Assembly: GCF_057098645.1 (NCBI RefSeq)
Contig: NZ_CM169472.1
Length of the DNA stretch: 64,000 bases
Direction: 5' to 3' (one strand)
Below are positions 30,001-48,000 of the stretch, one piece after another. The position numbers were made by a program. Position 1 is the stretch's first letter. Every line of letters begins with the position of its first letter.

Positions 30001-33000
30001 TTCTCCGCGGTCAGCGCAATGTTGCTGGCGAGTGCATCCAGTGCCGGACGGTGCGGGGAATCGATCTTCTCACCATTGGCATACACGTCGTCGCCAATGC
30101 GCAATACGCGCAGACCACCCAGGCGCACCAGCACATCACCTTGTTTCAGCGCATCGTAGATTTCATCTGGCTGATAAGGCGGCTCTGGCGGCGCGATATC
30201 CAGTTCATGACGTGACTGGGATATAAACTCCCCAAACCATTGCTTAAAGTGTTCCGGCTGGTTGATCAATTCGAGCATCATCTCACGCAGTTTATCCATC
30301 TCTTGCGGCAGAACATCCGCAGGATGAGCGCGAGGTGGAACATCAGGATCGCTGTAGTAGTTGCCGCCCAGTTCACGTTGCAGCACATAATCGGCAAATC
30401 CACTAATCAGTTCCCGCGTATTTGGCGCGCGAAAACCCACGGAATAGTTCATCGCATTTTCCAGCGCGTAGCCTTCATGCGGGAATCCTGGCGGAATATA
30501 AAGAATATCACCAGGCTCCAGCTCTTCATCGATGATGGCTTCGAACGGATCGACCTGTAACAGATCCGGATGTGGGCAGTGCTGTTTCATTTGCAGCTTT
30601 TCGCCCACTCGCCAGCGACGACGACCGGTACCCTGAATGATAAACACGTCGTACTGATCGAGATGCGGGCCGACGCCGCCGCCCGGTACAGAAAAAGAGA
30701 TCATCAGATCATCAATACGCCAGTCCGGTAGTTCACGGAACGGTCGCATCAGCGCGGCGGTCGGCTCATGCCAGTGGTTCACTGCCTGTACCAGTAATGA
30801 CCAGTTGGTTTCACCGAGATGATCGTAGCTTTCGAACGGACCGTGGCTGACCTGCCATTTTCCATCCTGGTGACTGACCAGTCGACTGTCGACTTCGCTT
30901 TCCATCGCCAGACCCGCCAACTCGTCTGGAGAGATCGGGTCAATAAAATTATTAAAGCCGCGTTTTAACACCACCGGGCGTTTCTGCCAGTGACGTTCAA
31001 GAAAATCGGGCCAGTTAAGAGTGAGTTGGTATTCCATGTTAAGCATCCACAGGCTGGTATCTGCAACCGATTATAACGGATGCTTAACGTAATGCGTGAA
31101 GTATGGACATATTTTATCAATTAGTGTTTTTTGCCGTTTCATAATGTTTCAGATTGTTCATTATGTTTTTGATTATAAACAGATTTGTGATTTTCCTTGT
31201 TCCAGCTTGTTTCACGTTGTAGCCCTTTGTGCAACGATCGGTGTAGTTAATGGTGTAGTTAATTGTGATGACCGGAATCAAAATTATGAGCAGAGCACTT
31301 AACAAACTGAGCGATACACAGCTGAGGAAAATCAACGGCACACCCGCCCAAAAAACAGCCTTTCTTAATGACGGTGGAAACCTGAGCGTCAGGCATTCAA
31401 CCAGTGGCCTTTTAACCTGGTATTTCACTTACAGGGCCGGAACGGGAAGGGGGGCACCACCGGAACGCATTAAGCTGGGAAATTATCCTGATCTGAGCCT
31501 GAAATCAGCCAGGGAAAAAGCCGCCCAGTGTCGCGCATGGCTGGCAGAGGGGAAAAATCCACGTCATGAGCTTAATTACACCGTACAGGAAGCGTTAAAG
31601 CCGGTAACGGTTGGCGATGCGCTCACCTACTGGCTTGAGTCGTACGCAAAGGAAAACCGCGTGGATTATGCCGCCCTGAAAAAGCGCCTTAATAATCACG
31701 TAATACAGCACATTGGTGCTATGCCGCTGGATAAATGCGAGCTACGGCACTGGCTGGCCTGTTTTGACCAGGTGGCAAAGCGAACGCCTGTTACTGCCGG
31801 ATTCTTGCTACAGACGTGCAAACAGGCGCTTAAGTTCTGCCGGAGGCGGCGCTATGCAATCAGCAACGTTCTTGATGATATGAGTGTGGCGGACGTTGGG
31901 AAAAAACCGGATATAAGCGAGCGTGTCTTAAGCACCAAAGAACTGGGCGAATTATTGCAGGCACTGGACAAAAAAATATTCTCCCCCTACTACATCGCGT
32001 TAATCCGCCTCCTGATTGTGTTCGGATGCCGGACGGTAGAACTGAGGTTATCGGAGATCAGCGAGTGGGATTTTACCGAAATGCTCTGGACCGTGCCGAA
32101 AGAACACAGCAAAACGAAGGTGGCAATATTCCGGCCCATACCGGAAGCAATACTGCCGTTCGTCACGCAGCTGGTGGAGCAGAACAGGCACACGGGTTTA
32201 TTGCTGGGGGAAGTGAAACAGGAAACAAGCGTGTCGCAGTACGGCAGATTAGCGCATAGGAGGCTAAATCACCCTCACTGGTCACTACATGACATCCGGC
32301 GCACCTTTACAACGATGCTGAACGATTTAGGCGTGGATCCTCACGTCGTGGAGCAGCTTACAGGCCACCAGATGCCAGGAATGCAGCGAGTTTATAATCA
32401 TTCCCGTTATCTGGATGCTAAACGCAATGCGCTGGATATGTGGACGGAGCGGTTAGGGATACTGGCGGGAACACATGAAAACGTAACCACGCTACCAGTA
32501 GCCAGAAGAAAATAATTTTTTTCGTGTTTTTTCAGCATGCGCATACTGGATATGCGAACAGATACAACGTGCAACAATGAGCAACAATGTGGAACAACCA
32601 CGAACAAGAGGCGAAAAAGCGTACGGATTTATAAGTAGCTGATTTTTAATGCGTTACTGGTTTTTTATACACTAGCGAATCACTCTTTAAAGAGCGAGAA
32701 AAAAGGCATGAAACAATATTTTATGCCTTTGTATTAACATGAATTTAAAAGATTTTATTCTTACTGTTTCATTTTCTGTAAATCATACATCCTCAGTATT
32801 TGCCATTCATCACTCTAGCGGGAACAATACGACACAATAAGACACCTGATGACTCTTTAAGAAACGAAAGGGGGCAATAGTGTTAAGCACTGATCGGTTT
32901 ATACGTGAAAAAGAATGCGAAAAACTAACCGGCCTTAGCCGTACGTGTCGCTACCGCCTGGAAAAGGCCGGACAATTCCCATCACGTCGTAAACTTGGCG

Positions 33001-45000: not shown

Positions 45001-48000
45001 TTGCAGATCTGCAACTCGACCATGAAACTACGGAAACTACCCGTAGTTTGGGTAGTAAGAGTAACACCCAGATTTTGGGGCTTACTCGTGATACCCAAAT
45101 TTGGGGTATCGGTGGCAACCATAACGACTTTCGTTACGGTTGATGCTTTTACCCCATTGGGGGAAAGGTATTACGATAATCATAACACCTACCGAACAGG
45201 TAAAGCCCACCAGCCTGATTAACGTTTAACCGGAAAAAAATTCCGGTAGGTGGGGATCCCCATATAGACATTAACGCCCCTCATGAATTGGTGTGCTTCC
45301 CCCTGGAAAGATGATCCGCCTGTATATTTCTTGTGTCTATTTGTTCCACGTTGTTTCATACAGTGCACCGAACGGTGTAGTCACTGGTGTAGTCATTTTG
45401 CGATTTTTGGCACTTTTTGTGGTGTTAATTATTTAATTAAATCAATGTGTTATGCGAAATAAGTTATATATAACAGCAATAAATAATGCGAGAATAAACG
45501 GCACGATGATCTCGGCGGCAAAACGGATACCGCAGAGAATAATGACCAGCATTCCCAACATAATGACGATTTTTAGGCCATTGAGCGTGATGATCGGCTT
45601 TGCCATGCTTGTCCCCGTTTTTTCTTCCTTTGCTAATAATAATGTCTTTTTCGCTCCGTCATCATAACGAAAATCAAACCGCTCAGGTAAAGAAGTGAAA
45701 ATATTTTGAGTTAATTCTTAAGCTATGATACAAATCAGGCGTGTTCAACTACCGAGGACAATTATCATCCGCGATGACGAGAAGCAACACTGCGGATAAT
45801 TGTAATATTATGGACAATTTGTTCAGGACGTTATTTTCTACATTTACCCATCTTCGTACCTCATCCACTATCTTGCTCGTAGGTGAGCAGCACTGGCGCA
45901 ACGCGCTTTAGTCCTTTCTTCTGCCAAAGCTTGCGCTAAGCGCGGGGCTTGACCACTTTACTTTGGTTTCGCTGAATTAAGCGAAAATTAAAATAATTCT
46001 CTTGCAGGAGAAGGACAATGTATATTTATTGGATTTTATTAGGTCTGGCTATTGCTACAGAAATTACCGGTACGCTGTCCATGAAATGGGCGAGCGTCAG
46101 TGAGGGAAATGGCGGTTTTATTTTAATGCTGGTGATGATTTCTCTGTCGTATATATTTCTCTCTTTCGCCGTTAAAAAAATCGCCTTAGGCGTAGCTTAT
46201 GCGCTGTGGGAAGGTATCGGTATTTTATTTATTACCTTGTTTAGCGTTTTGTTATTCGACGAAAGTTTATCGCTGATGAAAATTGCCGGGTTAACCACCC
46301 TGGTCGCCGGGATTGTGTTGATAAAATCAGGTACCCGTAAAGCGCGTAAACCTGAACTGGAGGTGAACCATGGCACAGTTTGAATGGGTTCACGCCGCCT
46401 GGCTGGCATTGGCAATCGTGCTGGAAATCGTTGCTAACGTCTTTTTGAAATTTTCTGACGGCTTTCGTCGCAAAATATTTGGCTTGCTCTCCCTGGCGGC
46501 GGTGCTGGCTGCCTTTAGTGCGCTTTCTCAGGCCGTTAAAGGGATCGACTTGTCTGTCGCTTATGCATTGTGGGGCGGGTTTGGTATTGCCGCCACGTTA
46601 GCCGCAGGTTGGATCTTGTTTGGTCAACGGTTAAATCGTAAAGGCTGGATTGGCCTGGTCTTGCTGTTGGCTGGAATGATCATGGTGAAACTTGCCTGAT
46701 GAAGACGCTGCCCGCGCTGTCGGGCAGCGTTTGAACATTATTTTTGCGACAGTTGATCCAGCTTGTCGCGAAAACCGGTAACAGAAATGGCCCGGTTATC
46801 GGCGCGCCAGCGATCTTTCGCGGCAGGAGCCGAACTTTGCACCCCAATTAATTGCCAGCCGTCATCGGTATGCAACATCAGAGGCGAACCGCTGTCACCC
46901 GGCAAGGTATCGCACTGATGTGACATCACCGACGTTTGCGCCCAGCCAGTCACTTCACAGTTTTGATGACTGTACAACGTATCGAGATGATCTTCAGGGT
47001 ATCCTGCCTGAGTCACTTTACGACCTGCCGCTTTTAATGCGGCGGTAAGCGCGGCTTTATCTCCCTCAAATAACGGCAACGGTGTAATGCCAGAAGGGGG
47101 ATTACGTAGCACAATCAATCCGAAGTCCCACGGCGCGGCTGCGGGAGGTATAATCCAACCATCCCCATCTGCTTTTAACCTCTTTCCCAGTGTCGGATCA
47201 ACGCGGCCTTCTATGTCGTGGATGTCATAGCGCCAAAGACCTTTATTTGACACAAAACGCAGCGCCACTGCTTTATCGGCTTTACCCTTTGGAGGTGTCA
47301 ATAAACAGTGTCCTGCCGTTAATGCCAGATTGGGTGCAATCAGCGTCGCCGTACATAAATTGCCGCTGGCCGTTTCCAGTTGCCCAACCGCATCCCACGG
47401 TGATTGGGTCGTGTCATTCACTGGCACACGATCATCATGACCAAAAAACAGGGTGCTAACCTCATCGTTTGCCGATTTGGCAACGTCTGGTTTATCTGCA
47501 AACACAAAAGCAGACGTCAAACTAATTGCACCCAACACTACAGCAATGGTTGTACGCATATCACACTCTGGTGGGTAATTATGATTATTAAAAGCAAACC
47601 CTCATAAATACTATAGACGGGACGGGATGAAAGTGGGAGTAAAATCAGATAACTACAGTCAGGAAAGATAAAAACGGGCGGCAATCAGTGCGCATAAAAT
47701 AAGGATGATAAGAATGAACTCAAAGCGATAACGGCCCACCATACTACCCTCCGCTAAAGGCGGTGCTAAACGTTACCCGCTTAGCACCGTAATTTTCAGG
47801 CGCGAGGGGGCGCGCCAGCATTACTGTTGAAAACTTATGCTGCGGGTTGTGCAGCAGGTTTTGCCGGTTGCTGATGGCTGTGTTTCCCGGCGTGTTTCTT
47901 CGCTGCCTGCGCTTTTTGTTCAGGGGCTTTCTGTTCAGCTTTCGTATTTTTATGATGCTTTTTAGCCGCCTGCGCTTTCTGGGCAGGTGCTGCTTTATGC

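Follow-up and report, generated by a model that had tools for sequence, protein, structure and literature searches.

The locus described here raises the question of how a single mobile element can have come to lie between two regions that are normally far apart in the chromosome of its host. It is found in a 64,000-nt stretch of contig NZ_CM169472.1 (NCBI RefSeq assembly GCF_057098645.1), referred to below as the window, in which the Escherichia coli genes potBA-pepT-roxA are followed by a phage satellite, by the beginning of tqsA and by mdtJI. As judged from its gene content, the element is a satellite of the capsid-forming phage-inducible chromosomal island (cf-PICI) type, and its two ends belong to two different insertion sites. 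We argue that it probably arose by homologous recombination between two resident satellites, with inversion of the chromosomal segment between them.

A phage satellite joins two distant chromosomal regions

A first-pass annotation of the window had placed a satellite at 31038-45606. The satellite stands, whereas these limits were too wide: the element proper occupies 31115-45469 (14,355 bp), and the excess consists of roxA-proximal spacer and the tqsA fragment. The same annotation had assigned the left flank, potBA-pepT-roxA, to about 25 min on the K-12 map, and the right flank, read as the first ~48 codons of tqsA followed by mdtJI, to about 36 min. Alignment with K-12 bears out both assignments. 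K-12 1183631-1188317 (potB, potA, pepT and roxA; 25.6 min) is collinear with window positions 26428-31114 at 99.1% identity, and the alignment stops at 1,188,317, where the phoQ stop codon ends. K-12 positions 1,674,049 down to 1,668,000 (36.1 min) correspond in reverse orientation to 45470-51519, which contains 137 nt of tqsA (codons 1-45), mdtU/ydgV, mdtJ, mdtI, ydgD, asr and ynfM. The open frame that begins with these 45 K-12 codons extends to 48 codons, and in two tqsA-site relatives (L002 and L003) the same fragment is annotated as a partial autoinducer-2 transporter. The earlier remark that the left junction contains neither phoQ nor the 3′ part of tqsA can be extended, as neither occurs anywhere in the 64 kb.

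Both flanks are 100% identical to those of O145:H28 genomes of sequence type 32. Positions 28000-32000 match O145:H28 RM12581 at 100% identity, and the right flank matches O145:H28 RM13516, RM12761 and other strains at 100.0% identity over 18.1 kb. This shared origin of the two flanks points to a single genetic background.

The two ends of the element belong to different attachment sites

Complete E. coli genomes hold many close relatives of the element, and these occupy exactly two contexts. In the first the order is roxA-element-phoQ (for example in FORC_042 and RM12581), and in the second it is pntB-tqsA3′-element-tqsA5′-mdtJI (for example in MBT-5 and O145:H28 12E115). Comparison of the insertions with the empty sites of K-12 defined the core of each attachment (att) site. 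The roxA/phoQ-site core is a 10-bp sequence at the phoQ stop, which reads GGGCATATTT in the K-12 attB and GGACATATTT in the elements. The core of the tqsA-internal site is the 9-bp sequence ATAACAGCA, corresponding to K-12 1674041-1674049. Normal insertions carry the same core at both ends, GGACATATTT in L001 and L004 and ATAACAGCA in L002 and L003. Neither att site involves a tRNA gene, and none is present in the 64-kb window. The main divisions of the element, together with the adjoining tqsA fragment, are as follows.

31105-31114, plus strand: attL core of the roxA/phoQ-site type, GGACATATTT, single copy in the window element
31115-34488, plus strand: left arm of the roxA/phoQ-site type, with integrase (31286-32515), AlpA/excisionase-like gene (32880-33068) and variable regulatory region (33126-34295)
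34489-44472, plus strand: core shared by both site types (9,984 bp)
36907-36933, plus strand: mosaic boundary within the core, with sequence of L007 on its left and of L016 and L029 on its right; candidate crossover interval
44473-45469, plus strand: right arm of the tqsA-site type, with a 63-amino-acid (aa) open reading frame (ORF; 44462-44653) and the attR-proximal arm
45470-45478, plus strand: attR core of the tqsA-site type, ATAACAGCA, single copy in the window element
45470-45606, minus strand: tqsA 5′ fragment, K-12 codons 1-45, in an open frame of 48 codons whose stop lies inside the element

The arms agree with the cores in their assignment. The integrases of the two site types differ by ~9% at the DNA level, and the 25 nt that immediately precede the right core are unrelated between the types. 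Over the left arm the window shows at most one mismatch to the roxA-site elements L007, L008, L024 and L025, whereas the tqsA-site elements L029, L002 and L003 are ~9% different across int, with the last diagnostic difference at position 34488. Over the right arm the situation is reversed: the tqsA-site elements L016, L026 and L029 match the window without a mismatch, whereas in L007 and L025, of the roxA/phoQ-site type, divergence sets in at 44473 and the last 25 nt before the core are different. The window element is thus a chimera, with the phoQ-type core and arm on the left and the tqsA-type arm and core on the right. Chance does not account for this arrangement.

Both parental sequences are found in close relatives

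Public contigs of close relatives, including those in Logan, were identified by exact-protein look-ups. The sequence of the left part is represented by L007 (Logan SRR32768194), which has the arrangement potBA-pepT-roxA-element-phoQ and only 2 mismatches to the window over positions 25276-36933; beyond 36933 it is 2-6% divergent as far as the phoQ end of the element. The sequence of the right part is represented by L016, L029 and L026 (GCA_032290885.1 and others), which have the arrangement pntAB-tqsA3′...tqsA5′-mdtJI and show no difference from the window between 36934 and at least position 50000. In a three-way alignment, the last difference between the window and L016 is at 36906 and the first difference between the window and L007 is at 36934. 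The two copies thus occupy different loci in relatives, and the window shows a single switch between them inside their shared homology, as expected of a hybrid junction.

The position of the switch may nevertheless not be that of the crossover. L024 and L025 (SRR17991919; GCA_022217545.1) lie between roxA and phoQ and, apart from a patch at 36509-36906, agree with the window at every position as far as 44472. Because roxA-site elements with an L016-type core exist, a crossover that made the att chimera could have occurred anywhere in 36907-44472, and we dropped the 36907-36933 interval as the sole possible site. This interval may be merely the edge of a swapped cassette, and on a conservative view the crossover can be placed anywhere within the core, 34489-44472.

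The patch itself (36509-36906, ~400 bp) comprises the RepA C-terminus and an intergenic iteron origin. It exists in two alleles that are ~75% identical and are flanked by 100% identity. Directly downstream of repA, at 36674-36868, are six iterons of 13-14 nt (six copies of AAAAAGTGGGGAG together with inverted copies), and these differ between the two alleles, AAAAGTGGGGAG against AAAAGTGAGGNG, the latter being that of L016. From this pattern the patch looks like a swappable specificity cassette for replication protein and origin (rep-ori). As a separate observation, L024 and L025 resemble a roxA-site element converted over ~9 kb to tqsA-site sequence.

Two further Logan contigs, L009 (SRR7693648; 9,985 bp) and L032 (SRR29931313; 9,983 bp), have ends exactly at 34489 and 44472. 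A de Bruijn assembler collapses two identical cores with different arms into such a contig, and the coincidence of the ends with the arm boundaries therefore indicates isolates with two satellite copies that have identical cores and different arms. Double occupancy with homogenized cores occurs naturally, and these contigs imply that satellites at different loci undergo concerted evolution or gene conversion.

A terminus-spanning inversion is the most probable explanation

In K-12 a distance of 486 kb separates the two flanks, which are oppositely oriented. On this map, the int-to-terL direction of an element is forward at the roxA site and reverse at the tqsA site. The same geometry is seen in MBT-5, where the roxA-site element lies on the plus strand at 2.26 Mb and the tqsA-site element on the minus strand at 2.82 Mb (0.55 Mb apart), and in O145:H28 16003, where the left flank (plus strand) ends at 1,454,395 and the right flank (minus strand) at 2,073,621, with 619 kb between them. 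In the window, both flanks are on one strand, the reverse of their mutual orientation in the reference. The dif site (GGTGCGCATAATGTATATTATGTTAAAT), at K-12 1,590,750, is located between the att sites at 1,188,317 and 1,674,049. Because the natural copies are inverted around dif, a single crossover between them would give exactly the adjacency and the flank orientation of the window, which deletion or simple transposition would not. The suggestion in the first-pass annotation that two related satellites at different loci had recombined is supported on three counts, namely the chimeric att sites and arms, the presence of both parents in relatives, and the inverted placement of the sites around dif.

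On these comparisons of sequence and map position, we consider it probable that two resident satellites recombined homologously to give a terminus-spanning inversion, which would be either the real structure of this chromosome or a real isomer in the culture. The process would start with two cf-PICI-type satellites in one O145:H28-type chromosome, at roxA/phoQ and inside tqsA, inverted with respect to each other, one on either side of dif, and sharing a near-identical core of ~10 kb that contains the replication and packaging genes. One RecA-type crossover in this core would invert the intervening segment of 486 kb on the K-12 scale, or ~619 kb in O145:H28. Its product would be the junction in the window, in which roxA, a phoQ-type attL and the left arm are joined to the right arm, a tqsA-type attR, tqsA5′ and mdtJI. 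The reciprocal junction, pntB-tqsA3′-attL (tqsA type)...attR (phoQ type)-phoQ, would be expected elsewhere in the genome. We infer both this junction and the second copy in the present genome, as well as a crossover that took place in vivo rather than in the assembler.

Several observations weigh against this proposal. Just one of the two junctions lies within the 64-kb window, and the second copy is outside it. The exact inverted repeat of 7.5-10 kb is the type of structure at which assemblers mis-join. On the K-12 scale, 402 kb of the inverted segment would lie on one side of dif and 83 kb on the other, an asymmetry that would displace dif by a calculated ~319 kb and leave the replichores unbalanced. 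Finally, we searched the complete RefSeq E. coli set (n=5,426, which does not contain the window's own assembly) with a contiguous 18.5-kb query and then with a composite of long flanks and five internal anchors, built so that any recombinant should head the ranking. In none of the 5,426 genomes was the roxA flank joined to the mdtJI flank via a related element, and all of the ~25 retrieved public contigs that cross both junctions are parental. The arrangement is rare at best.

Cumulative GC skew rises steadily across the junctions. An inversion that includes dif keeps the leading and lagging orientation of the strands, and is consistent with this rise. Since strand orientation is kept, GC skew inside the window does not discriminate between the models.

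Of the explanations that compete with inversion, an assembly artefact, which the first-pass annotation had named as its alternative, survives best, and we regard it as a possible though distinctly less likely account. Two normal arrangements would be present, and the assembler, or a hybrid bridging step, would have switched copies in the 7.5-10-kb identical inverted core; in a variant, the culture would contain both isomers and the assembler would have reported the minor one. The switch does fall in 34489-44472, which is identical between the site types, and reads shorter than ~12 kb cannot phase the arms. The lack of the arrangement in the 5,426 complete genomes and the public contigs described above is also as an artefact would predict, and the mixed-culture variant has a parallel in O157:H7, where inversions appear even within single-colony cultures and structural isomers coexist (PMC8743559). 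Several features of the contig argue the other way. Its base-level quality is very high (one gap in 19.5 kb relative to L007, and the exact agreement with RM13516 over the right flank), both flanks are from the same lineage, and the contig also reads through a lambdoid prophage in its tail region, an indication of long-read assembly. Genuine prophage-bounded inversions are moreover frequent in Shiga toxin-producing E. coli (STEC), amounting to ~1-2 in each genome when compared with a reference (PMC8743559), and we would expect them to be commoner than mis-joins.

A different real rearrangement, such as a duplicative or multi-step translocation that brought tqsA5′-mdtJI-ynf beside the roxA-site satellite, or an inversion after which the reciprocal element was lost, seems quite improbable. 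A single visible junction does not fix the global topology, and in two O145 assemblies, RM8988-C1 (NZ_CP035770.1) and RM8995-C1 (NZ_CP031355.1), the flanks are on the same strand and not adjacent (~0.3 Mb and 1.8 Mb apart, respectively). Such same-strand flanks indicate that other large rearrangements affect this terminus-proximal region of O145:H28. Explanations of this kind need more events, whereas one exchange between inverted repeats accounts for the orientation, the chimeric att sites and arms and the parental sequences.

Ordinary site-specific insertion into a native roxA-tqsA adjacency or a secondary att site, the outcome that the first-pass annotation had set against its own interpretation, has an intact integrase in its favour and nothing more, and can be dismissed almost entirely because the single-copy cores are mismatched (phoQ-site attL on the left, tqsA-site attR on the right), no direct repeat flanks the element, the longest string common to both junctions being 7 nt, and the flanks are contiguous in no empty-site genome, roxA being beside tqsA in none of the 5,426 complete RefSeq genomes.

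Strand comparisons in other strains gave some additional observations. RM8843-C1, RM9872 and 16003 have the two flanks on opposite strands. The tqsA-site satellite is on the minus strand at ~2.715 Mb in strain 6883 (NZ_CP074998.1) and on the plus strand at ~2.66-2.72 Mb in O26:H11 FWSEC0001 and strain 05_3471, and the roxA-site copy is on the same strand in all three. Comparison of strain 6883 with FWSEC0001 and 05_3471 suggests a different inversion that has one endpoint between the two loci.

Precedents for inversion between repeated elements

Frequent inversion in STEC O157:H7 has a documented substrate, namely inverted homologous regions on either side of dif that are no shorter than 5 kb and at least 98% identical (PMC8743559). 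The prophage-bounded rearrangements of these strains involve the same type of inverted-repeat recombination around dif and the same bias for the terminus region. In O157:H7 the repeats are lambdoid prophages, whereas here they would be two cf-PICIs with different integrases and att sites. The main O157:H7 inversions also generally change replichore size little (PMC8743559), in contrast to the inversion proposed here, which is asymmetric about dif. Inversions bordered by integrative elements and prophages have been described for O145:H28 itself (PMC3893438, PMC7067040). Those mediated by rrn operons or insertion sequences (IS) in Salmonella and E. coli (PMC2957434, PMC4173774) use the same RecA-dependent exchange between inverted repeats and leave hybrid copies at both endpoints; the difference is that the repeat in the present case is a mobile satellite, in which exchange parts the integrase and attL from the cognate attR. 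Literature searches, whether for inversions mediated by PICIs or for this one in O145:H28, turned up no specific report. Prophage-bounded inversions in STEC have made the mechanism familiar and the satellites are an unusual substrate for it, so that the gain is incremental.

Predicted consequences for the satellites and the host

Tyrosine recombinases require identical overlap regions for excision. Because each hybrid satellite would pair the integrase and attL of one type with the attR of the other, excision should fail, and neither satellite should be able to leave the chromosome before the inversion is reversed. For the host genes, tqsA is split in every tqsA-site lysogen and the phoQ stop codon is kept in normal lysogens. 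After the inversion the tqsA halves would be ~0.6 Mb apart, and the phoQ stop should persist at the reciprocal junction.

A more far-reaching idea, which we hold to be doubtful, is that co-resident cf-PICIs with differing integrases and rep-ori cassettes and with gene-converted 10-kb cores form a portable pair of inverted repeats around dif and act as a reversible switch of ~0.6 Mb at the terminus, shifting the position of dif and the replichore balance and, by parting each integrase and attL from the cognate attR, locking both satellites in the chromosome. If this were true, satellite mobility would be coupled to host chromosome structure. The inversion alone, if it is real, would document a case in a Shiga-toxin lineage of E. 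coli in which the recombining repeats of a terminus-spanning inversion are phage satellites and not complete prophages, IS elements or rrn operons. Exchange and homogenization of long stretches between satellites at different sites are of relevance to satellite typing and to the interpretation of short-read assemblies. For genome curation, the roxA-tqsA junction is flagged for read-level validation.

Gene content and classification of the satellite

Core genes were assigned from Pfam and PHROG, with RefSeq names taken from homologous loci at 96-98% identity. The shared core, all on the plus strand, carries the following genes.

Early part, plus strand: small ORFs, a DUF4222 gene, RepA-type primase/helicase (35276-36676) and the iteron origin (36674-36868)
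Middle part, plus strand: 83-aa ORF, single-stranded-DNA-binding protein (37126-37536) and PerC (37547-37819)
Head genes, plus strand: HK97-type capsid (38108-39265), protease (39305-39877), portal (39879-41090), head closure (41087-41425) and adaptor (41422-41718)
Packaging end, plus strand: HNH (41718-42158), TerS (42447-42803) and TerL (42787-44448)

This organization is that of a cf-PICI. One end carries the integrase and AlpA-type regulator genes, and a replication module follows them; Pfam identifies Phage_integrase, Phage_AlpA and AAA_25 on the identical genes of L008, and PHROG matches are to integrase, excisionase and repressor in the left arm and to a primase-helicase in the element. 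The element has its own set of head and packaging genes (capsid, prohead protease, portal, closure, adaptor, HNH, TerS and TerL), no tail or lysis gene is found among all its ORFs of at least 60 aa, and its size agrees with the range of about 10-15 kb. The prototype cf-PICI, EcCIEDL933 of E. coli O157:H7, has the same size of ~14 kb and the same gene architecture (10.1101/2025.02.11.637232), and helper induction, the formation of small capsids and the use of helper tails would be expected by similarity to it. The roxA-phoQ-site element of O157:H7 strains occupies the same site and is 96% identical over 80% of the query, and the integrase of the roxA-site element in O157:H7 Sakai is identical in protein sequence to that of the window element. 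Unlike elements of the EcCIEDL933 type, the window copy carries the att site and right arm specific to the tqsA lineage at its right end, and it is a recombinant rather than a free-standing excisable island.

In the variable regulatory region (33126-34295), an ORF of 389 aa is called in the identical copies L008 and L025. In L007 and L024 the same DNA is annotated with two minus-strand ORFs (33443-33628, and 33686-33883 with DUF3950) and a plus-strand ORF of 68 aa. The last 92 aa of the 389-aa ORF alone match the phage repressor family phrog_6196, and RefSeq calls a related small gene Icd-like; the long ORF may be spurious. No defence system was identified with PADLOC among the small and accessory ORFs.

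The TerL, portal or 83-aa ORF protein also occurs in satellites at further sites (L015, L017, L021, L022 and L048). In L015 and L017 the satellite is at a thiamine-kinase/GntR region, and in L048 it is at the cspD-clpS region and has an integrase of 412 aa. L021 and L022 are next to a DUF3413/sulfatase-family gene, which we take to be yejM, and are classical PICIs with capsid-E, decoration and Nu1-type TerS genes. Among satellites, the modules for packaging, replication and integration reassort freely. The 83-aa protein encoded across 36907-36933 was accordingly rejected as a marker of the recombinant, being present also in the unrelated PICIs at the yejM-side site. Exact matches to the integrase, portal and TerL were likewise uninformative as lineage markers, as they are found in thousands of assemblies, in elements at no fewer than four att sites.

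Neighbouring genes

The genes that flank the element were named by K-12 collinearity and alignment, with RefSeq names from homologous loci on the left and the annotation of L002 and L003 on the right.

26408-31037, left flank: potB (26408-27271, minus), potA (27255-28391, minus), pepT (28641-29867, plus) and roxA (29916-31037, minus)
45740-64000, right flank, reversed relative to K-12: ydgV, mdtJ (46018-46383), mdtI (46370-46699), ydgD (46738-47559, minus), asr, ynfM (48567-49820, minus), ynfL, mlc, bioD, clcB, dmsD, ynfHGFE and onward

To the left of position 26428, where homology to K-12 begins, the window (1-26427) consists of a lambdoid prophage inserted at potC/potB, represented by its tail and effector end. 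It contains long tail ORFs of 1080 aa (2143-5385) and 1175 aa (9649-13176), an ORF of 782 aa, an espN-like gene with DUF4765 (18637-22038), an IS3-family element (~22195-23486) and espK (24683-26044). O145:H28 genomes are 99.9% identical to the window over 20000-31200. In the tqsA-site contig of O145:H28 12E115 (L003), IS3-family elements are inserted in ynfF and near ynfB (31222-32435 and 38728-39941); the corresponding ynf region of the window (57477-63688) is free of these insertions and intact, as it is in RM13516 and RM12761.

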